Below, piece after piece: positions 5,752-29,475 of a stretch of DNA of 64,000 nt. The stretch's first letter is position 1. Each line of letters starts with the position of its first letter. Below the pieces are notes generated by a model that saw only the letters and a program-made list of their open reading frames with translations, was not told where the DNA came from and made no database searches. The stretch is from an uncultured Bacteroidales bacterium (GTDB lineage Bacteria; Bacteroidota; Bacteroidia; Bacteroidales; UBA12077): assembly GCA_964606845.1 (NCBI GenBank), contig CAZSIC010000002.1:17609-81608 (forward strand), read 5' to 3'. The position numbers were made by a program, and so were the translations under genes.

Positions 5752-6178
5752 AACTTAAATTTTTTAGTTTATAATAAATTTTATTGAAATGAAACAGAAG
5801 GTTAATGATAATGTTTAATTAATTTAATTATTTATTTAACATTTAACTGTGTTTATAAATAATAAATATATTTAATTTATTAATATACAAATATTTATAT
5901 AAATACATTATAAATTATGATTTTTTTAATGTTTTACATATTTAATTCTAAACTAAACAAATATTTTTTATGCAGTGATGATATTCATAAAAAAATCATA
6001 ATTCAATAAAAAACTAATTGCGAGGCTTTAGTTATTTGAAATTAATGATAAAAAAACAGGATATGAGAAGGAATAATATTTAATTCCGGTAAATGAAACA
6101 GGCTTTAAAGGGGGCGACAATATTTAATTAAGACGAGATTTCTTTTGGAATACAGATATACCGACATTAAAGTGGGTC

Positions 6179-14196: not shown

Positions 14197-14259
14197 TAAA
14201 AAGAAAGAGGAGTCGCCAGTGATTTTTCGTTAGTTATAAATGAAATTAAACAATATTCC

Positions 14260-14421
14260 AGTGTCGTGTCAATGCTATTGTGTCGGTTAAGTCGCAATAA
14301 TTTTTTCTCAGATCAAAAAAGAAATTCTGCACATAGCCGAAGCTACGTAAAGAATTTATTTTGACGAGCTGAGGAAAAAGAACAAGACTTGGGCTGACTA
14401 AAATAGCGTTGACATGACACT
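14260..14421 (+). repeat. 162-nt long imperfect hairpin (inverted repeat): candidate structured RNA or MITE-like element
   Basis: Hand pairing gives 14260-14279 with 14402-14421 (20 consecutive pairs including 2 G:U) and continues inward through bulges to a TAGC/GCTA stem capped by CGAA at 14338-14341. At least 6 G:U pairs occur on the plus strand. Confidence 0.8.
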
Positions 14422-14614
14422 AGTATTTATATCATCTGTAATTTACTTTTATAAATATTAAGATTGTTATTGTCATGAACTTAAACCTACTGACGAATAC
14501 TTTATTTTCTGATAAATACAATCTTCTTCGCTACTTAGTCTGATATAAATTTTTATATCCTTTGCCAATTATTTTGTGCATATATTATTATCTTAGCCTA
14601 AAACATATTTTAAA

Positions 14615-17107: not shown

Positions 17108-18070
17108 ATGATAAAATGGGGAATCATTGGTCTTGGTAAAATTGCCCATAAATTTGCTAAAGGGCTTACGTATGTACCAAATGCAGAATTGTATGGTGTT
17201 GCTTCAAGTAATATCAACAGGGCTAAGGAATTTGCAAAAAAACATCAGGCTAAAAAAATATTTGAGAGTTATGAAGCGCTTGCTAAATCAGACAAGGTTG
17301 ATGTAATGTATATCGCATCCTATAATCACCTTCATTTTGAACATGCAAAACTTTGTATCGAACATGGTAAACATGTATTGTGTGAAAAACCGTTAACTAC
17401 ATCATTAGCAAAAACAAAAAAATTATTCTCTCTTGCCGGAAAACAACATGTTTTCTTAATGGAAGCACTATGGTCTCGTTTTCATCCATCCATTGCATAC
17501 CTTGAAGAACTTATTCAATCTGAATTATATGGAAAAATTAAACATATTGATGTGTCTTTTGGCTTTGTAGCACCTGATAATCCCAAAGGACGTTTACTTA
17601 ATACTGAACTGGGTGGTGGAGCTTTATTCGATATTGGTATCTATCCGTTATTTCTGAGTCAATTGCTTTTAGGCTTACCTCAGAAGTCAGATTTTACAAT
17701 TAAATGGGGCCCAACAAATGTAGATCTACATACAACCATACGCAATACTTACCCATCTGCTACAGCAAATTTAACTTGCTCTTTCAATGAAGAGCTTCCT
17801 AATGAAGCAGTTATTCACTTTGAAAAAGCAACTGTAACCCTTAAGCCTCTGTGGCATTGCCCTACAGATGTTATTCTCTTTAAAGATGGAAAGGATCAAG
17901 TAATACCAATAAAATGGATAGGCAATGGTTACAATTATGAAGCAGCCTTTGTGTCGGATTTACTTGAAAAAGGAGAAACAACCCAACGAAAAATGCCAAA
18001 CGAATTTACCATTGAATTAATAAATCAAATAGAAAAGATGTTGCAAAATAAACAAGAAGAGATTAATTAA
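17108..18070 (+). CDS. Gfo/Idh/MocA-family NAD(P)-dependent oxidoreductase
   Basis: N-terminal Rossmann motif IKWGIIGLGKIAHKF and an EKP motif (VLCEKPLT). Confidence 0.85.
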   Translation: MIKWGIIGLGKIAHKFAKGLTYVPNAELYGVASSNINRAKEFAKKHQAKKIFESYEALAKSDKVDVMYIASYNHLHFEHAKLCIEHGKHVLCEKPLTTSLAKTKKLFSLAGKQHVFLMEALWSRFHPSIAYLEELIQSELYGKIKHIDVSFGFVAPDNPKGRLLNTELGGGALFDIGIYPLFLSQLLLGLPQKSDFTIKWGPTNVDLHTTIRNTYPSATANLTCSFNEELPNEAVIHFEKATVTLKPLWHCPTDVILFKDGKDQVIPIKWIGNGYNYEAAFVSDLLEKGETTQRKMPNEFTIELINQIEKMLQNKQEEIN

Positions 18071-18144
18071 CTTTTTATGATTTTTTACAGGTATTTGGGT
18101 TTGTTGCCTATTAAATTCTGCAAATCCAACTCAGTTAAGTTATC

Positions 18145-18177
18145 AAAAAAGGGTGCAGAAAATCTACACCCTTATTT
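18145..18177. terminator. Probable bidirectional terminator
   Basis: The stem AGGGTG (18150-18155) pairs with CACCCT (18167-18172). An A-run lies upstream and TTATTT downstream. It sits between convergent genes. Confidence 0.5.
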
Positions 18178-18197
18178 ATAATCACTTTATTAAAAAG

Positions 18198-18917
18198 TTA
18201 TTTTTTCATTATTTTCTTCTCTACTTCTTTTTTATCTAACTTTTTAGTACAGAAAAACCAATCTTTGCAATCAATATCTTTTTCTTCCATACGTCCTTGA
18301 GCTGAACCACATGAACCTGCTGTTGGCACAATTACATCATCTCCGGGATGCCAGTCAGCTGGTGTAGCCACACCAAATTCATCGGCTGTTTGTAATGCGA
18401 TAAGCACCCTGTATAATTCATTAAAATTACGGCCTAAACTTAGCGGATAATAGATTACCGTTCTTATAATTCCTTTGGGATCGATAAAGAAAACAGCTCT
18501 TACAGCTTTTGTGTTATCTTCGTTAGGCTGAACCATACCATATTTCTTGGCAACATCCATCTTTATATCTTCAATCAAAGGAAATTTAACTTCAATATTC
18601 TTCATTCCTTTGTATTCGATTTTCTCTTTAATGGTACGCAGCCATGCAATATGACTATAAAGCCCATCGATAGATAAACCAATTAAATCGCAGTTTGCAT
18701 CGTTAAATTGCTTTTCCATATTGGCAAAAGTCATAAATTCCGAAGTACAAACGGGTGTAAAGTCTGCCGGGTGACTGAAAAGAATCGCCCATTTTCCTTT
18801 ATAATCTGCCGGGAAATTAATTTCGCCCTGAGTAGTTACTGCTTTAAACTCAGGCGCTGGATCTCCTATGCGAGGCATAGAAAAAACTTCTTCTTTGTTT
18901 TCAAATTTTTCTTCCAT
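18198..18917 (-). CDS. Peroxiredoxin (Prx6/archaeal-TPx-like) with a Cys-containing C-terminal extension
   Basis: Has the peroxidatic motif PADFTPVCTSE. The tail is GSCGSAQGRMEEKDIDCKDWFFC. Confidence 0.88.
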   Translation of the reverse strand: MEEKFENKEEVFSMPRIGDPAPEFKAVTTQGEINFPADYKGKWAILFSHPADFTPVCTSEFMTFANMEKQFNDANCDLIGLSIDGLYSHIAWLRTIKEKIEYKGMKNIEVKFPLIEDIKMDVAKKYGMVQPNEDNTKAVRAVFFIDPKGIIRTVIYYPLSLGRNFNELYRVLIALQTADEFGVATPADWHPGDDVIVPTAGSCGSAQGRMEEKDIDCKDWFFCTKKLDKKEVEKKIMKK

Positions 18918-18947
18918 AATTTTTATTTATTTTATAGTTAACAAATA

Positions 18948-19445
18948 TTATTCAGCTGATTTGCCAGAAACATTTTTACTTCTTTCAATGGATTGCAGTG
19001 CAAGATAATTTTCTCCAAATTTTTTCATATTCTCCATTTCGTCGTCATAATTGTCAAAATGACGTTCTTCGTCTTCAACCAGCGATTCGAATAGTTTTTT
19101 AGATACTGAGTCAGCATTTTGAGCACATTCATTTGCCCAGTTATTATAATCTTCGGCACTTTGCTCTTCCATTTTTCGGGCCAACTCAAGCATTTCTTTT
19201 ACATCATGAATTTTCTTAACATCTTCGGAAACGATCATTTCCACTTCGCCATCCAGAAATAAAACTCTTTCTGCTAATTGCTCAACATGCATCATTTCTT
19301 CAATGGCAATACGGCGGAAAAGTCCGGCTAATAAATCATAACCCTGGTCATCACAGTGAAAATGAAAGTACATGTATTGATGTACTGCTGATAATTCGTC
19401 TCCAATCGCTTTGTTTAGTAGTTCGATACTTTTTTCCTTTTTCAT
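18948..19445 (-). CDS. bfr: Bacterioferritin-family protein
   Basis: LNKAIGDELSAVHQYMYFH...EEMMHVEQLAERVLFLDGE...EDEERHFD aligns by eye with the Bfr di-iron ligands and the Met heme ligand. Confidence 0.8.
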   Translation of the reverse strand: MKKEKSIELLNKAIGDELSAVHQYMYFHFHCDDQGYDLLAGLFRRIAIEEMMHVEQLAERVLFLDGEVEMIVSEDVKKIHDVKEMLELARKMEEQSAEDYNNWANECAQNADSVSKKLFESLVEDEERHFDNYDDEMENMKKFGENYLALQSIERSKNVSGKSAE

Positions 19446-19522
19446 AGTTTATTTTAATTAAAGTTTAAAATTTAGTTTTTAATCTAACATTAATGCCATT
19501 GCTTTGAGTAAATAAATAAAAT

Positions 19523-19948
19523 TTAATGATAAAATTTACCTACAATATGAAGCTTAATGTCGTCTATTTCAAAATTTTCTATTTTTTTCTTCTTAAAATA
19601 TTGTTCTAATAATATATTTAAATCTTCATCATAATAATCTTCAATTCTATCCGAATCAGTTGAATATAAATGATGATGTTTTTCCAAATCATGATCATAT
19701 CGCATCACATCTTTATCGGTTTTTACACGCTTTAAAATTCCTTTCTCAACAAATGTATCCAATATTTTATATACCGTACCTTTTGCAATATTTGGATGAT
19801 TCTTTTTAATTTCTTCAATGATTTTATCAGTTGTTGGATGATTTCCCAACAATACAACAGCTTCAAAAACAATTAATCGTTGTGGGGTTATTTTTAACCC
19901 TTTATTTCGCAACTCATTATGTAAATCAGCCTTATTCATTTTAACCAT
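19523..19948 (-). CDS. Fur-family transcriptional regulator (PerR-like context), Cys-free
   Basis: Has the KITPQRLIVFEAV wHTH signature and a His-rich segment HDLEKHHHLY, but no CxxC pairs. Confidence 0.8.
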   Translation of the reverse strand: MVKMNKADLHNELRNKGLKITPQRLIVFEAVVLLGNHPTTDKIIEEIKKNHPNIAKGTVYKILDTFVEKGILKRVKTDKDVMRYDHDLEKHHHLYSTDSDRIEDYYDEDLNILLEQYFKKKKIENFEIDDIKLHIVGKFYH

Positions 19949-20081
19949 GTATTAAATAAGATTCATTCTCATTTAAGAATAAGTAAAATTACAAAACATA
20001 TTTCAAATTTCCAAATGTTTGTATAAAATTATGTTCAAAAATTAATGTTTGATTTAAAACAAAAAGAATAAAAAGAGGAAA

Positions 20082-21368
20082 TTATTTTTCTCTCACATGA
20101 TATGACCAGCGGAGAATATAGATGCCAACCAACAAAGAAAAAATAGCAATGGCGAATGTCCATGAAAATCCCAACCACTCATACAATGCTACACCTAGCA
20201 ATGGTGCAAAAATGGATCGTAATCCTGTAGCAAAAAGGTGTATAGACTGATAATTCCCTGCTTCTTCGTTACTGCCGAAATAAGATGACCCAATATTCCA
20301 CGATATAGGCATTGTAGAAGTAAAAAGACTATAAAAAAGCGTAGCAATAAGTAACATAATGTAAATTTCGAGATTCCATAATTCAAAATGCATTGGAATA
20401 TACGCCGATAAGCCGATAAATAAAATATATCCGGCCAAAGAAATAAAAGGTAGTACGGTAAATTTTCGAGGATCTACACTTCCAATCAATTTACCGAAAA
20501 ATGGAAGCATGATAATAGCCAGGATATTATATGCATTTTGATAAAAAGCAACACTAGAATAATTCAGAGCCAATTCTTTATCATAAAAAATATTAATAAC
20601 CGAGCGGGTACTCATAAAACTGAATCCATAAAATAAGAATGCAATTTGATAATCAAGGTAAGCTTTGTTGGTTCTTAAAATATGAACCATTTTTTTAAAA
20701 GAGCTAACCACTGCCTGCATAATTCCTTCTGAATAATCAGCAACGGTTTTAGGAATGTATTCAATTCGGGAGAATAGAACAATGCTTAAAAAACCTAACA
20801 CACCCAGTACAGGAAAAAACCAGGTAAAGGAAAAATCGTCGGCATCTAATAATAATCCCAACAGAAAAACGGTAATCAGAAGCAGTACTTGCCTCACAGA
20901 TGCAGAAACTCCGTAAATGCGGCCAAAATTCTCCTGCGAATAAGCATTCTTAAGAAAAAGATTAATCGTGGGTAAAACGATGGGATAAGAAAGATAATAC
21001 GTAAAAAAGATAAACAGAAATATGTAATGATATATGGAATGAATCGTGTATACTTCAGGATTTTGCGGGAAAAAAAGTAAAAAAAGCAAAGGTAAATGAG
21101 TTAAAAATCCTGCCCTGCGTAATAATTTACGTTTTCTTTTAGCTCTGTAAATCAATTCGTTAAAAAACACCGAAAGCAACAGGACAATTACACTCGACTG
21201 AAACAAAACACTTAACTGATAGCTTGATCCATTTAAGCTTTTAATAAATACATACTCATTTAACAACAAAGCACCACGAATCATCCCATCAATAATAGAA
21301 AAAGTGATATGAAGGTAAAAAGTACGTAATTCTTTATCGTTTAATCTTTTGAGTAATCTTATTTGCAT
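20082..21368 (-). CDS. MFS-type transporter
   Basis: 428 aa with about 12 hydrophobic segments. Substrate unknown. Confidence 0.65.
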   Translation of the reverse strand: MQIRLLKRLNDKELRTFYLHITFSIIDGMIRGALLLNEYVFIKSLNGSSYQLSVLFQSSVIVLLLSVFFNELIYRAKRKRKLLRRAGFLTHLPLLFLLFFPQNPEVYTIHSIYHYIFLFIFFTYYLSYPIVLPTINLFLKNAYSQENFGRIYGVSASVRQVLLLITVFLLGLLLDADDFSFTWFFPVLGVLGFLSIVLFSRIEYIPKTVADYSEGIMQAVVSSFKKMVHILRTNKAYLDYQIAFLFYGFSFMSTRSVINIFYDKELALNYSSVAFYQNAYNILAIIMLPFFGKLIGSVDPRKFTVLPFISLAGYILFIGLSAYIPMHFELWNLEIYIMLLIATLFYSLFTSTMPISWNIGSSYFGSNEEAGNYQSIHLFATGLRSIFAPLLGVALYEWLGFSWTFAIAIFSLLVGIYILRWSYHVREK

Positions 21369-21542
21369 TTTAAAGTTTTAATGCTTAACAGACTTGCAAA
21401 TATAGTTTAAGTTTAATATTGTGTAATAATTCTTTTTATGAATCTCATAAAACAAAATATACATCTAATTTTAAACGAAACGACAATTTTTGTGTTCTAT
21501 ATAGATTGTGATCTAAAAATATTAGGCCAAAAGAAAAAATGT

Positions 21543-21550
21543 TACCTTTG
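21543..21550 (+). promoter_or_regulatory. -7 box TAccTTTG
   Basis: Exact TAnnTTTG match, 20 nt upstream of the ATG at 21571. Confidence 0.4.
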
Positions 21551-21570
21551 AAAACATAATATGATATACT

Positions 21571-22032
21571 ATGGATAAAAATAAGAAACAAGGAAGATAC
21601 GATCGAATTTATAAGCAAATTGCTGAATTAATGCCAAAAACAGATAATCCGTATGCAAGGATGTCGACTATAATTGCGGTTTTACATCATAAAATGGAAA
21701 CTTTTTTCTGGACAGGTTTTTATTTCTTGAAAAACGACAAATTAGTGGTAGGCCAGTACCAGGGGCCGGTAGCATGCCAGGAATTAACAAAAGATACCGG
21801 AGTTTGCTGGGCAGGCATTAATCAACAAAAACCTATTGTTGTTGCTGATGTAGAAAAGTTTCCCGGCCATATTGCCTGCGATTCAAGGTCTAAATCGGAA
21901 ATTGTAATTCCATTAAAAGATTCGAAAAAAAATATTATCGGTGTTTTGGATGTGGATAGTAATGAATATAATTCGTTCGATGAAGTGGACGAAAAGATGT
22001 TATCCAAAATATTAGAACTGATTTTCAATTAA
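21571..22032 (+). CDS. GAF-domain protein (free methionine-R-sulfoxide reductase-like)
   Basis: 153 aa. The segment FFWTGFYFLKNDKLVVGQYQGPVACQEL...GVCW...GHIACDSRSKSEIVIPL matches the fRMsr/YebR-type GAF pattern. Confidence 0.75.
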   Translation: MDKNKKQGRYDRIYKQIAELMPKTDNPYARMSTIIAVLHHKMETFFWTGFYFLKNDKLVVGQYQGPVACQELTKDTGVCWAGINQQKPIVVADVEKFPGHIACDSRSKSEIVIPLKDSKKNIIGVLDVDSNEYNSFDEVDEKMLSKILELIFN

Positions 22033-23993
22033 TGAAAAAAATCTTACTGCCCATATTATTTGTTATATTTTCTTTAAGCAGTTTAGCACAATTAAATGTT
22101 AATTATTATTTATCGCTTGGAAGAGGAAAACTTTATGCTCAAAAATACAATGAAGCCATTGATGCTTTTAATATTGTAATAAATGTAAAGCCTAATCTTG
22201 CAGATCCTTATTTTTTAAGAGGAATCGCAAAATATAACTTAGCTGATTATCTGGGTGCAGAACAGGATTTTACCCAAGCTGTTGAATTAAAGCCAAACCA
22301 TACCGATGCTTTAAAAAACAGAGGAATTACCCGCGTTAACTTAAAAAAATATTACCTGGCGCTAAACGATTTCGATCAGGCCATTAAACTCTATGCTATT
22401 GATCCTGAACTATTTGTTTTTAGAGGATTTTGCAAAATCAACATCAACCATTACGATCAAGCTATCAACGATTTTAACAAATCGCTGGAAATTACAAAAC
22501 ACAACAAGAAAGCTTATTTCTATCGCGGACTGGCAAAACATTTTTCGGAAGATACCCTTGGAGCCCTAAAAGATTATGACAAAGCATTAAAAATTGATCC
22601 TGAATATGTTCCGGTTTACATGAATAAAGGAATTTTATACTCTGAGTGGCACAAGTATGATACTGCAATCACCTGTTATTCGCGTGTTATTAAGATTGAT
22701 CCGCTTAATGCAAGTGCTTACATTAACCGTTCGCTGGCGAATTATCATCAGGAAAAAATTCAAACAGCCGTTCATGATTTAGATACTGCCATACAAATAG
22801 AACCCGACAACTCGCTGGCACTATTTAACAGGGCATTACTCAAAAACGAATTGGAGCAAAAACGCGATGCTATTTCAGATTTAAACAAAGTGATTCAATT
22901 AAATCCTCAAAATATCCTTTCCTATTTTAACCGAGGCCGTATTAAGCAGGAAATTGATGATTTGCAAGGGGCTTTTATTGATTTTTCCAAAGCCATAGAA
23001 ATTTATCCCGATTTTGCCAAAGCATACATCAGTCGTTCAAATGTAAGACGTCAACTGAACGATATCAAAGGTGCTTTAGCCGACCGTCAACGTGCTGAAA
23101 ATATTATTGCAGCTGTTCGGGAAAACAAAGAATTGTATGCCAGTTATACCGATACCTCGGATAACTTTAGAAACTTGATTACTTTAAAGTCAAGTAACCG
23201 ATTTTATAATCATCCAAACTATAACCAACGAATAGAACCGGAAGAAAATTTTGTGCTTGCAACCGGTAAACAAAACTCCGAATATTTTAATAAAATTGCT
23301 GCCCTACACGATAATATAGAGGAGCAAAAAAATATTTACAAGGAATATGGGCTTGTTATTAAAAATGAAAGTGATGTTATTAGAAATATTGACTCATTAA
23401 AAATGAAAATAGCTGCTTTAGAAGATAATTACAAATCAGCCAACAATAAATACCAAAATTTAATTCAAACAGCTGTTTATAAAAGTTACTTAAAAAACTT
23501 TAACGAAGCTTTATCGGATTTAGATTTAGCCATAAAATTGAAACCCAACCATTTTCTTGCCTATTTTTGCCGTGGAAATATTCGTTCAGAAATGATTGAT
23601 TATATAAAACTATTAGACCAGGAAAATGATGTTTTACTCATTGACCCGCAACAACAATCAAGCATTAAAACCATAAAAGAACAAGAAAATTTTGCTGATT
23701 ACCAATATATCATTAATGATTATATGAAAGCACTGGAAAAATCGCCTGAATTTATTTTTTCCGGGTATAATTTGGCAAACACTTTCTTAAAAACTCGTGA
23801 TTACAATAAAGCCATTGAATGGTACAACAAAATAATTAAATACGATAATACTTTTGCCGAAGCATATTATAACCGGGGGTTAACCTACATTTACCTAAAA
23901 GAAAACGAAAACGGCTGTATGGATATGAGTAAATCGGGTGAGTTGGGTATCCAAAATGCTTACGTGGTAATTGGCCGCTTTTGCGAAAATTAA
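22032..23993 (+). CDS. Tetratricopeptide-repeat protein with signal peptide
   Basis: Has many 34-aa A..YNRG.A...L.....A..D...AI...P repeats. Its start overlaps the upstream stop (TAATG). Confidence 0.85.
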   Translation: MKKILLPILFVIFSLSSLAQLNVNYYLSLGRGKLYAQKYNEAIDAFNIVINVKPNLADPYFLRGIAKYNLADYLGAEQDFTQAVELKPNHTDALKNRGITRVNLKKYYLALNDFDQAIKLYAIDPELFVFRGFCKININHYDQAINDFNKSLEITKHNKKAYFYRGLAKHFSEDTLGALKDYDKALKIDPEYVPVYMNKGILYSEWHKYDTAITCYSRVIKIDPLNASAYINRSLANYHQEKIQTAVHDLDTAIQIEPDNSLALFNRALLKNELEQKRDAISDLNKVIQLNPQNILSYFNRGRIKQEIDDLQGAFIDFSKAIEIYPDFAKAYISRSNVRRQLNDIKGALADRQRAENIIAAVRENKELYASYTDTSDNFRNLITLKSSNRFYNHPNYNQRIEPEENFVLATGKQNSEYFNKIAALHDNIEEQKNIYKEYGLVIKNESDVIRNIDSLKMKIAALEDNYKSANNKYQNLIQTAVYKSYLKNFNEALSDLDLAIKLKPNHFLAYFCRGNIRSEMIDYIKLLDQENDVLLIDPQQQSSIKTIKEQENFADYQYIINDYMKALEKSPEFIFSGYNLANTFLKTRDYNKAIEWYNKIIKYDNTFAEAYYNRGLTYIYLKENENGCMDMSKSGELGIQNAYVVIGRFCEN

Positions 23994-24010
23994 ATCCTAT
24001 TTTTGGGTTC

Positions 24011-24291
24011 GCCGGCTCCCAACAGCTATAGCCGACTGCTGGTATTTTAGTCAGCGGCTTTATGCCATGGAAGTCTTTTTATCAGGGTCACCGGCTTCCA
24101 GCCGGTTTATCCTGGAAAAATTCCATATCAGTTAAAACCGGCTAGAAGCCGGTGATCCATTGAAAAAATTACTTATTTTATAAGTTATAGGTACAGCCGA
24201 TTGGTTATAATAGTCAGCGGATGAATTACTAATTGGCAACTAATTATGCTTAATATCATGGTGCCGTTGATTCAAAAGTCATCCGCTGACT
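24011..24291. repeat. Cluster of GC-richer hairpin repeats (REP/BIME-like) between convergent genes
   Basis: Direct repeat AGCCGA(C/T)TG...TAGTCAGCGG at 24030-24059 and 24194-24220. Twin hairpins ACCGGCT-TCC-AGCCGGT (24090-24106) and ACCGGCT-AGA-AGCCGGT (24137-24153). A 13-bp stem joins AGTCAGCGGATGA (24212-24224) and TCATCCGCTGACT (24279-24291). Confidence 0.8.
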
Positions 24292-24294
24292 TTT

Positions 24295-24321
24295 AGAAAA
24301 AAACCGTGCAAAAATGCACGG
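24295..24321 (-). terminator. Intrinsic terminator of the glutathione peroxidase gene
   Basis: The stem CCGTGCA (24304-24310) pairs with TGCACGG (24315-24321). An A-run at 24295-24303 gives the U-tract on the minus strand. Confidence 0.7.
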
Positions 24322-24352
24322 TTCAATTATCTAATATCATTTTTTATCGAAT

Positions 24353-24898
24353 CTACTTCTCTACAATCCAGTTTATGATCTGATCATCTAAAGGATTTGT
24401 TCTTGAATAAGCCACATCTACCAAATTCCCTTTTTCATCAATCATGTATTTCTGAAAATTCCACTTTACTTTCGAGTCCATTACTCCATTTTCTTCTTTA
24501 TCGGTTAACCATTGATAGAGTGGATGAATATCATCGCCTTTAACCGATATTTTAGACATCATAGGAAAAGTAACTCCATAATTTTCTGAACAAAACTGCT
24601 TTATTTCATTGTTTGAACCTGGTTCCTGGTTCATAAAATTATTAGCAGGAAATCCAATAATTACAAAATTCTTAGATTTATATTTTTGATAAAGTTTCTG
24701 TAAATCTTCATATTGCGGGGTAAAACCACATTTAGAGGCTGTATTTACAACCAATACTTTTTTGCCCTTTAAAGTGGATAAATCAAAATTTTCTCCATCG
24801 ATGGTTTGTACCTTAAAATCATAAAAGGATTTGTTTTGAGCAAAAGTTACTGAACTTATCAAGGCCAATGCAATTATTAATACTGTTTTTTTCATCAT
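24353..24898 (-). CDS. Glutathione peroxidase family protein (Cys type), exported
   Basis: Motifs NTASKCGFTPQY, FPANNFMNQEPG and a WNFQKY-type segment. I start it at the internal MMKKTVLIIALALIS signal peptide rather than at the track start. Confidence 0.88.
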   Translation of the reverse strand: MMKKTVLIIALALISSVTFAQNKSFYDFKVQTIDGENFDLSTLKGKKVLVVNTASKCGFTPQYEDLQKLYQKYKSKNFVIIGFPANNFMNQEPGSNNEIKQFCSENYGVTFPMMSKISVKGDDIHPLYQWLTDKEENGVMDSKVKWNFQKYMIDEKGNLVDVAYSRTNPLDDQIINWIVEK

Positions 24899-25032
24899 CT
24901 TATTTTTTTGTTTACAATCATTTTTCAAATCATTAAACAAGAGAAAATAAAATATGTTCATATTTACTGGTTATAAAAAGTATCATTCAAAATCTGTAAA
25001 TAAATTGAAATTGTTAATGGCTTGTTATCAGA

Positions 25033-27639: not shown

Positions 27640-29475
27640 TTAACGATTCATATAATCGTTGGAAAGTATCTGAAGAAATGCTTTCCCATTTTCTAAATCA
27701 TTGGTAATATGTTCACCTTCCTGATATAAAATTTGCTTACCTATATTATCATAAACTACTTTTGTAGAATCGGTTACAAAACCAAAACCATCATTAAAAA
27801 CATAAAATACATATCCGGAATAATTAGCGTTTAAGATATTTTTACTATATGTATATGATGAATCGTAGGATGAAATCTGGCTTAATAAAGTATTGGGCAG
27901 GTCAATCTGCGAAGCTGACTCATTTATAACCATTTGATCAGATTTTAAAGCGCCTCCCAACCATAACATGGGTATTTGAAATTTATCTAATTCATGATTC
28001 TGAGAATTTCCCGGACGTGGGCTTCCGTGATCAGCCAATAATATAAATAATGTGTTATCCCAAATTTCTGTTTTTTTAATTTTACGGAAGAAATCACCTA
28101 ACCAACGATCGGTATAATAAATTGAATTTCTAAATTTTGTTGCCCTATCGTAACCATCAAAAAAGGGTTCCATAGGAATTTCAAAGGGATCATGGCTGCT
28201 AAGCGTAAAAACAACCTTAAAAAAAGGTTCCCGGGATTTTAACATATTATCATAAAGATAAGTAAATAGGTACTCATCGTGTACACCCCATTTAGAGTTT
28301 CTAAGTTTTTTATCAAACTGCCGGTCGGTTACTAAATGCTGTACTTCTCCATTCAAAAAATAAGAACGCATATTTGCGAAGTCTATATTTCCGCCATAAT
28401 AAAACCACGATTCGTAACCCAGTTTATTAAAGTTTTTAAACAGAAATGGCAATGATTCTGTTTTACTTGATGTTTTTATGATTGAAGTGGTAGGCTGAGC
28501 AGGGTAACCACTTAGAATCGAAACGATGCCTTTATCACTTCTGTCGCCATTGGCATAAAAATTAGTAAACAATAATCCTTCTTTTGCCAATTCATTAAAA
28601 TTTGGTGTTGAATCCCACGCTCCTCCTAATGCTCCAATAACTTTATTTGAAAAACTTTCGAGAATTAAAATGACGACATTAGGTTGATTTGCTTCTAACA
28701 CTTTCAAAGTATCTCCTTTATGAAAAGATAAATTATTTACAATTTGTTCAGCCTTTTCATCAGGCATAAAATGATAGGTTTTTTCAGTATTTTTTCTATA
28801 AAGCAGAGAATTCATTACATTCCAAACCACATTAACCGCAGCATGGTTAGCAAATTTATGCTGGCTAAAATAAACCATCCCTGTATTAACCGGAGCAATA
28901 CCAAAACTGGCACGAATAGGTAAAATCATACTACCAGTAAGCAAAATCAATAAAGTTAACGTAAAAAAGTTACCTTGCTTTATGGATAAAATTTTTTGTT
29001 TGAGAAATTTATTATAAAAATAATTTCCAAAAAATATAAGTATTGCAATAAATAATAAAAGGATTATCGTAAGCCACCACTCAGTAGAAGCTATTGCTTC
29101 TTTTGGTTTGGTAATATAGAGTAAAGGAGTTGCATCCATGCGGTATCCCCAGTTTTTGTACAATTCTAAATCGGTAACAATTATTACAGAAGAAACTGTA
29201 AATAAAATCAGGGTAAAAGGTTTTAAAATCTTGTGAATAATCTTTCCATCAAGAAAAAAAGTAAATATTAATATTAAACCTGTTACCCCTAAAATGTATC
29301 CAACAGAGGAGATATCTAAACGAATACCATAAAAAAAACTAAGTAACCATTCATTAAAAAATAAGTCGAATGAAAATTGATATTGATAAAAAAGAAAAAA
29401 AAGCCTTGCTGCTAAAAAAAATATTAACCAGTATAATGCATAAGTAACAAAGAATTTTAATCGGTGTTTCATCAT
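27640..29475 (-). CDS. LTA-synthase/sulfatase-family membrane phosphotransferase (paralog 1)
   Basis: About 5 N-terminal TM helices are followed by an alkaline-phosphatase-superfamily domain (ILESFS, GDRSDKG, LLADHGSP). Confidence 0.8.
   Translation of the reverse strand: MMKHRLKFFVTYALYWLIFFLAARLFFLFYQYQFSFDLFFNEWLLSFFYGIRLDISSVGYILGVTGLILIFTFFLDGKIIHKILKPFTLILFTVSSVIIVTDLELYKNWGYRMDATPLLYITKPKEAIASTEWWLTIILLLFIAILIFFGNYFYNKFLKQKILSIKQGNFFTLTLLILLTGSMILPIRASFGIAPVNTGMVYFSQHKFANHAAVNVVWNVMNSLLYRKNTEKTYHFMPDEKAEQIVNNLSFHKGDTLKVLEANQPNVVILILESFSNKVIGALGGAWDSTPNFNELAKEGLLFTNFYANGDRSDKGIVSILSGYPAQPTTSIIKTSSKTESLPFLFKNFNKLGYESWFYYGGNIDFANMRSYFLNGEVQHLVTDRQFDKKLRNSKWGVHDEYLFTYLYDNMLKSREPFFKVVFTLSSHDPFEIPMEPFFDGYDRATKFRNSIYYTDRWLGDFFRKIKKTEIWDNTLFILLADHGSPRPGNSQNHELDKFQIPMLWLGGALKSDQMVINESASQIDLPNTLLSQISSYDSSYTYSKNILNANYSGYVFYVFNDGFGFVTDSTKVVYDNIGKQILYQEGEHITNDLENGKAFLQILSNDYMNR

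Follow-up and report, generated by a model that had tools for sequence, protein, structure and literature searches.

Inverted pairs of DNA uptake sequences in Neisseria and Haemophilus double as terminators. REPs are found singly, as head-to-head dimers, or in clusters; most lie downstream of genes, and it is common for a family to comprise only 20 to 100 units (PMC3733652). The described REP super-families carry the unpaired tag GTAG or, in the second, CGTC (PMC3733652), and Bacteroidetes have TnpA(REP) enzymes of subclasses 2.4 and 2.6 (PMC6006769). The spacer analyzed here lies in a 64-kb window (the whole stretch of DNA that was analyzed), a low-GC (33%) contig of an uncultured Bacteroidales-like bacterium. 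One unit in this spacer is built like REP, REPIN, and BIME elements: it is a palindrome of 20 to 25 nt whose GC-rich stem of 7 bp closes a short loop and which carries a conserved unpaired tag on one side. Like them, it is seen as singletons, as inverted doublets forming long hairpins, and in clusters; it is extragenic, lies mostly just 3′ of genes, combines a conserved core with unrelated flanks, and has subfamilies with compensatory stem changes. It differs from them in its tag, which is GATCC rather than GTAG or CGTC, in its numbers (∼15 copies so far, with one cluster in the 64-kb window and no RAYT found), and in that its mobility is only presumed; most described families come from proteobacteria, and the host here belongs to an uncultured, low-GC lineage that is Bacteroidales-like. 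With uptake-sequence pairs, the unit shares a short conserved motif arranged as an inverted pair, in which a GC-rich hairpin is followed by Ts, located 3′ of genes. Unlike those pairs, it shows no sign of uptake function or of very high copy number, and the conserved asymmetric GATCC tag argues for a REP-type unit rather than an uptake-sequence pair. A second module, H3, is comparable to bacterial MITEs: it is ∼95 nt long, noncoding, AT-rich inside, and bounded by terminal inverted repeats of ∼20 nt, and it is found as whole and truncated copies at more than one position, decaying without compensation. Unlike MITEs, H3 has no definable target-site duplication and no known parent IS, and its copies have come to light only in the TPR-PD40-gpx neighborhood of relatives.

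The preferred reading, to which a probability of about 70% is assigned, is that the spacer consists of small palindromic repeat elements that piled up in 3′ intergenic DNA and were remodeled by gene deletion. It would comprise a doublet of REP/REPIN-like type, one and a half copies of the MITE-like H3, a weaker H1 unit, and the gpx terminator, and form no single functional unit. A conspicuous, hairpin-dense spacer of this kind would represent ordinary bacterial junk or terminator-type repeat DNA at a 3′ intergenic "safe site" and no new RNA gene.

The spacer extends over 359 nt (23994-24352) from the stop codon of a TPR gene (22032-23993, + strand) to that of the convergent glutathione peroxidase gene gpx (24353-24961, − strand). 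Its GC content is 0.44 to 0.46, compared with about 0.30 to 0.33 in the flanks. The anatomy of the spacer is given in Table 1. Preceded by the final T of the TPR stop, AAATCCTATTTTT gives TAAATCCTATTTTT, which is common to the window and to two related loci, L002 and L004; in L002 and L004, a copy of H3 comes immediately after those 14 nt, counted with the stop codon. Relatives were obtained by fetching TPR orthologues from species-representative genomes and other assemblies, and their loci are cited by number where they need to be told apart.

Table 1. Features of the spacer between the TPR and gpx genes, in window coordinates
Feature	Position	Strand	Remarks
Spacer start, AAATCCTATTTTT	23994-24007	+	Colinearity with relatives ends here, ahead of the inserted modules
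H1, TCGCCGGCTCCC...AGCTAT..CGACTGCTGGTA	24009-24050		CCGGC/GCYGG stem, loop of ∼20 nt; third, weak repeat unit
Left-arm remnant of a truncated second copy of H3, TATTTTAGTCAGCGG	24043-24057	+	Direct repeat D3 with 24206-24220
Left flank of hairpin doublet, AGCGGCTTTATGCCATGGAAGTC...ATCAGG	24053-24085	+	Homologous to L002 DNA between TPR and PD40
REP-like unit, left copy, GGTCACCGGCTTCCAGCCGGTTTAT on + strand (tail, stem, T-rich)	24084-24108	−	Faces the TPR gene
H2, REPIN-like doublet	24076-24167		Two inverted REP-like units, tails outward; long hairpin of ∼92 nt
Small TGGAA-AAA-TTCCA hairpin	24113-24125		Within the 26-nt spacer separating the two REP-like units
REP-like unit, right copy, AAACCGGCTAGAAGCCGGTGATCC	24135-24158	+	On − strand: tail, stem, TTTTAA; putative recombination junction of the PD40 deletion
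AT-rich linker	24159-24204	+	Colinear with L005 DNA between PD40 and gpx
H3, MITE-like, ∼95 nt	24205-24298		Terminal inverted repeats of ∼20-23 nt; core 13-bp stem AGTCAGCGGATGA/TCATCCGCTGACT; 54-nt interior
gpx intrinsic terminator, GAACCGTGCA-TTTT-TGCACGGTTT, then T-run on − strand	24301-24324	−	Sole terminator-like site in the scan

An ORF of 54 amino acids (23971-24135) was rejected as a gene; it had no Pfam hit and spans DNA absent from relatives. An assembly artefact was also rejected, as two independent records belonging to one protein cluster both contain the locus and its modules recur in other assemblies. Logan SRR7048224 and one NCBI record each have a TPR protein identical to that of the window; an exact look-up of the 202-amino-acid gpx product returned no identical sequence on record. 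The neighborhood (window positions about 18000 to 25000) is a conserved oxidative-stress gene cluster, also found in L001, L161, L162, and L167, with genes for AhpC/Prx, a rubrerythrin/ferritin-like protein, a Fur-family regulator, an MFS transporter, a GAF protein, the TPR protein, and gpx. Beyond it lie genes for an RNase_T-GIY-YIG protein and then dihydroorotate dehydrogenase.

An initial annotation of this DNA had listed two copies of a ∼30-nt unit, two short hairpins whose outer flanks can pair with each other, a smaller hairpin between them, and a perfect 13-bp stem, and all of these motifs were recovered. The ∼30-nt unit is present at 24030-24059; its second copy is partial, begins at 24195 rather than 24194, and ends at 24220. 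Both short hairpins, ACCGGCT-TCC-AGCCGGT (24090-24106) and ACCGGCT-AGA-AGCCGGT (24137-24153), are as described, and the pairing of their outer flanks forms part of a long inverted repeat (24076-24108 with 24135-24167) with 33-nt arms that are 82% complementary. The small hairpin between them and the perfect 13-bp stem (24212-24224 with 24279-24291), with its enclosed 54 nt, are likewise present. AGTCAGCGG occurs three times, compared with 0.05 expected, and the ACCGGCTNNNAGCCGGT unit twice, compared with 0.00 expected; the motif counts exceeded those of every shuffle.

For the fold of the spacer, z scores of −7.9 (+ strand) and −9.5 (− strand) were obtained. H2 is the most stable 100-nt fold of the 64-kb window by a wide margin: the best 100-nt tile, which lies over H2 (24061-24160), reached −45.6 kcal/mol, followed by −31.8 kcal/mol for the second best, with a mean of −13.8 and a standard deviation of 5.1 across the window. 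Folded as DNA, H2 gave −28.9 kcal/mol (z = −9.7), and the single REP-like hairpins gave −7.6 and −7.9 kcal/mol (z = −3.8 and −5.1, respectively). The units of H2 may fold singly or pair into one long hairpin, which would explain what the initial annotation called mutually exclusive folds. No motif of the spacer recurred elsewhere as a module: a second site for any of them was absent from the remaining 63.6 kb of the window, and a whole-window repeat search returned AT-rich chance pairs only, none related to the spacer. The repeat family is therefore sparse in this window.

The REP-like unit, A-ACCGGCT-GGA-AGCCGGT-GATCC, is 21 to 22 nt long; a GC-rich stem of 7 bp closes a loop of 3 nt, and the GATCC tag is unpaired. 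A single scan of a metagenome collection with the pattern AAACCGGCTNNAAGCCGGTGAYCC identified matches on three different contigs of one metagenome sample, Ga0209931. These comprised an inverted, tails-outward pair between convergent genes with a spacer of ∼80 nt (L158), one copy ∼80 nt past a gene (L159), and a cluster of three copies right after a stop codon (L160). In related MAGs, six copies were present in L002, where an inverted doublet lies at 6096-6167, and one in L004. Altogether, 15 pattern matches, 14 of which were aligned, came from seven contexts, namely, the window, two spacers of L002, L004, and the three Ga0209931 contigs. The core was invariant or nearly so across the 14 aligned copies, and the flanks were unrelated; since a near-invariant core recurs at seven contexts with unrelated flanks, H2 was classed as REP/REPIN-like. 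A strict core pattern gave 13 matches in 297 kb of related DNA, compared with 1 in 1.23 Mb of unrelated loci. The GATCC tag (GGATC on the other strand) was exact in 10 of the 14 aligned copies and corresponds to neither GTAG nor CGTC. In the subvariant CCGGCA-GGGA-TGCCGG, found in L002 and L160, both sides of the stem had changed (T..A to A..T) with pairing kept. The TGGAA-AAA-TTCCA hairpin between the two units of H2 is kept only partly in L002 (CTGAAGAATTCTTT).

In every context examined, the unit nearest the 3′ end of a gene faces that gene (tail, stem, T-rich); the order in which GGTCACCGGCTTCCAGCCGGTTTAT reads on the + strand indicates that the left copy in the window faces the TPR gene. 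The dispersed repeat proposed in the initial annotation is borne out for part of the spacer: the ACCGGCT-NNN-AGCCGGT(GATCC) unit is present in unrelated contexts on three metagenome contigs and also in two related MAGs. The link proposed through the 13-mer TATTTTAGTCAGC did not hold. Outside the TPR-gpx locus, dispersal was seen in one metagenome and for the REP-like unit only. A crude six-frame motif test ([ND]H.H ... Y[IV]..NP) detected no RAYT-like ORF in ∼300 kb of related loci, a weak test for what is about one gene per genome. No relevant paper was found in the searchable literature for the REP-like core sequence. Matches to viral contigs in two pattern scans were rejected: one lay in high-GC coding DNA, and the 76 others were 15-mer matches attributed to chance because none had an inverted partner or the expected next bases.

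The arms of H3 (24205-24227 and 24276-24298) are 23 nt long and 87% complementary. Four full copies were identified, one in the window, one in L161 adjoining the gpx terminator, and one each in L002 and L004 directly after the TPR stop; their mean column identity was 81%, loop included, and the TPR-proximal copy of L002 was degenerate. The right arm alone occurred four times in L002, each time after a REP-like unit, and the left arm alone in L005, and H3 was absent from L003, L007, and L008. The copies therefore occupy two positions, TPR-proximal and gpx-proximal, with isolated arms in addition, all within one neighborhood, and no clear target-site duplication was found around them. A check for covariation across relatives covered the H3 stem in four genomes: no pair showed a compensatory change, and 9 of 16 pairs varied only by becoming unpaired. 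Pairs that are broken without compensation form the pattern of decaying repeat copies rather than of a conserved RNA, and H3 was considered MITE-like because it is found whole or in part at two positions in relatives and lacks covariation. The identity of ∼80%, including the loop, between genomes with TPR proteins that are 84 to 94% identical could instead reflect constraint.

A second, truncated copy of H3 is marked by D3, the two copies of which (24043-24057 and 24206-24220) are 87% identical. In L002, the full TPR-proximal H3 is followed by the same AGCGGCTTTATGCC junction that follows 24043-24057 in the window. As a remnant of an H3 left arm, 24043-24057 explains both the repeated ∼30-nt unit and the I5 pairing with 24283-24291. 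H1 was 81% identical to L004 4715-4760, where the order of elements within the spacer differs; as DNA, H1 alone was not significantly structured (z of about −1). Both H1 and H3 were seen only within the TPR-gpx locus of relatives.

Spacer modules are present, absent, or rearranged among the relatives, most of which have a PD40/TolB-like gene between TPR and gpx. The order TPR (+), PD40/TolB-like (−), gpx (−) is common to L002, L005, L008, and L161, with the PD40/TolB-like beta-propeller gene located at 6206-7300 in L002, 6275-7273 in L005, and 7356-8351 in L161. This gene is missing from the window (24053-24352) and from L003/L168, apparently through independent losses. In L003/L168 (87% TPR identity), ∼45 nt, essentially the gpx terminator, separate TPR from gpx; the whole hairpin block is absent from this close relative. 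In L161 to L166 (84% TPR identity), the 3′ spacer of TPR carries an unrelated inverted-repeat element. It is ∼200 nt long (L161 7106-7307; also in L162 to L166) and bounded by 35-nt inverted repeats that are 80% complementary. The short-read contigs of several relatives break off within about 200 to 310 nt of the stop codon of TPR (about 230 to 310 nt for L162 to L166), in the equivalent spacer, which would fit assemblies breaking on repeats.

Window positions 24053-24163 aligned at 84% with L002 6063-6173, in the TPR-PD40 spacer, and positions 24120-24352 were colinear with the spacers that separate PD40 from gpx in L005 and L161, in the order REP-like unit, linker, H3, and terminator. The match of the linker to L005 7484-7533 (74% over 50 nt) is weak alone and is flanked there by a REP-like unit and the H3 left arm. 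The switch between the two source spacers falls in the right-hand REP-like unit. The spacer of the window thus appears to be two intergenic regions fused at a junction within a repeat unit, and this colinearity suggests that PD40 was lost by recombination between direct REP-like copies.

Further features were noted in individual relatives. The region between PD40 and gpx in L002 (7355-8018), the closest relative, contains 2.2 tandem copies of a 291-nt unit with 92% identity; each unit ends in a REP-like hairpin plus an H3 right arm and contains a CCCTGCCAGTCCGGCAGGCTGGG hairpin, with a weak subthreshold hit to "nuoG RNA." In L004, a run of Ns (scaffold gap, 4842 to about 4900) comes right after the repeat-rich spacer 3′ of TPR, and no gpx ORF of at least 100 amino acids was identified before the RNase_T gene; gpx may lie within the gap or may have been lost.

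Several other origins for the spacer were weighed. That the spacer, or H3 within it, is a structured regulatory RNA (a 3′-UTR-derived or independent sRNA, or a leader relic of the lost PD40 gene) is suggested by the very strong folding predicted for both strands, by the ∼81% conservation of H3 with its loop in four genomes, by the direct adjacency of H3 to the gpx terminator in the window and L161, and by a Bacteroidetes-type −7 box, TATTTTTG, at 23998-24005 (+ strand), directly after the TPR stop. However, no Rfam family matched the window at the gathering threshold, and the E-value mode, applied to the spacer and L002, returned only spurious subthreshold miRNA-precursor or leader hits to long hairpins. 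Mutations in H3 break the 13-bp stem without covariation, and the element is cut to one arm (L005 and four L002 copies) or absent in the relatives named above. The −7 box is probably a chance occurrence, since its spacing of 14 nt from the TTTG is too short, L004 does not conserve it, and boxes of this type are found at 1.6 per kb; a scan for sigma-70 promoters found none. The family of noncoding RNAs put forward in the initial annotation is therefore unsupported, and an RNA of any of these types is distinctly unlikely. Ordinary intrinsic terminators that evolved in place, with H2 as a bidirectional terminator pair rather than a set of repeat elements, would suit a site between convergent genes, and each unit, read in the orientation of the nearest upstream gene, does have a 7-bp GC-rich stem with a 3-nt loop and then TTTAT or TTTTAA. 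Such an origin is nevertheless very improbable, as independent evolution of terminators cannot account for 21-nt cores that are nearly identical and share one unpaired GATCC tag in seven unrelated contexts. The units also fail the terminator scan, narrowly missing its T-run criterion, and L003 does without them. Moreover, gpx already has a strong terminator of its own: the hairpin at 24302-24323 has the form of a terminator on the − strand, which assigns it to gpx, and it is conserved next to gpx in L002, L003, L005, L008, and L161. A terminator role is compatible with REP-like units, and this alternative differs from the best explanation only on origin.

Two further proposals were given very little credence. 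The combination of REP-like hairpin and H3 right arm might be seen as an attC-like site bounding cassettes in a CALIN or integron-like arrangement, the cassettes being PD40 and the 291-nt repeats of L002, given that a 58-nt composite unit flanks PD40 in L002 and then recurs every ∼291 to 302 nt. The attC criterion called for GTTRRRY core sites within an imperfect inverted repeat (R''-L''...L'-R') located at the 3′ ends of cassettes, together with an integrase or a cassette array. By inspection, the ends of the 58-nt unit do not show the R''/R' inverted core-site pairing; there is no integrase nearby, PD40 is a conserved neighbor of TPR in distant relatives without the repeats, and the 291-nt units amount to plain tandem duplication at 92% identity, which leaves a cassette origin scarcely credible. 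The initial annotation had joined the spacer and a long hairpin at 14.3 kb into one dispersed repeat or noncoding RNA family marked by the 13-mer TATTTTAGTCAGC, a match that it held to be unlikely by chance. The 13-mer does recur exactly on the − strand, at 14393-14405 rather than 14394-14406, and a copy with one mismatch lies at 28860. When the window was cut into 281-nt pieces and exact matches of at least 13 nt were sought within the same window, however, 94% of the tiles in this AT-rich DNA had such a match elsewhere, and the TATTTTAGTCAGC match was therefore attributed to chance. Similarity ends with the 13-mer, as the flanks of its two copies do not align and no other spacer sequence was found near 14.3 kb, and its presence in the spacer is explained by the remnant left arm of H3. 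A single family uniting the two sites is effectively refuted.

For the preferred reading of accumulated repeat elements, the following course of events can be proposed. Palindromic elements would accumulate in the 3′ intergenic DNA of the low-GC Bacteroidales-like host, and the resulting mosaic would have been compacted upon deletion of the PD40/TolB-like gene between TPR and gpx, probably through recombination between two direct REP-like copies. The units may have been spread by a transposase acting in trans, for which the best guess is a RAYT/TnpA(REP)-type Y1 HUH enzyme that might take the single-stranded hairpin plus tag as its substrate. They may persist because of their orientation toward the 3′ end of the neighboring gene, where they would be harmless or even mildly useful as back-up terminators or 3′ mRNA-stabilizing hairpins. 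A more ambitious version, in which the GATCC hairpin represents a third REP super-family that is specific to an uncultured low-GC Bacteroidales lineage, is mobilized by the little-characterized TnpA(REP) subclass 2.4 or 2.6, and actively remodels gene content, as in the PD40 deletion, is considered unlikely; under it, the embedded GATC might further turn the units into methylation sites or binding sites for a SeqA-type protein. Few such elements have been described in Bacteroidota, to which the REP/REPIN-like family with its unusual GATCC tag is an addition. The locus may also provide a worked example of how REP-like units scramble and shrink intergenic DNA, with a gene probably lost between two copies, and sister lineages have the same locus with a different mobile element or with none.

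The hairpin at 14.3 kb, which is unrelated to the spacer modules, pairs arms of 22 nt (14259-14280 with 14402-14423) with three mismatches and ∼120 nt between them; two of the three mismatches would be G-U pairs in RNA. It was missed by the repeat finder at a seed of 8. The L002 sequence, JBKHIH010000026.1, is titled "Thiohalospira sp.," a gammaproteobacterium. With 94% TPR identity, a GC content of 32%, and synteny with Bacteroidales MAGs, this contig has probably been mis-binned.
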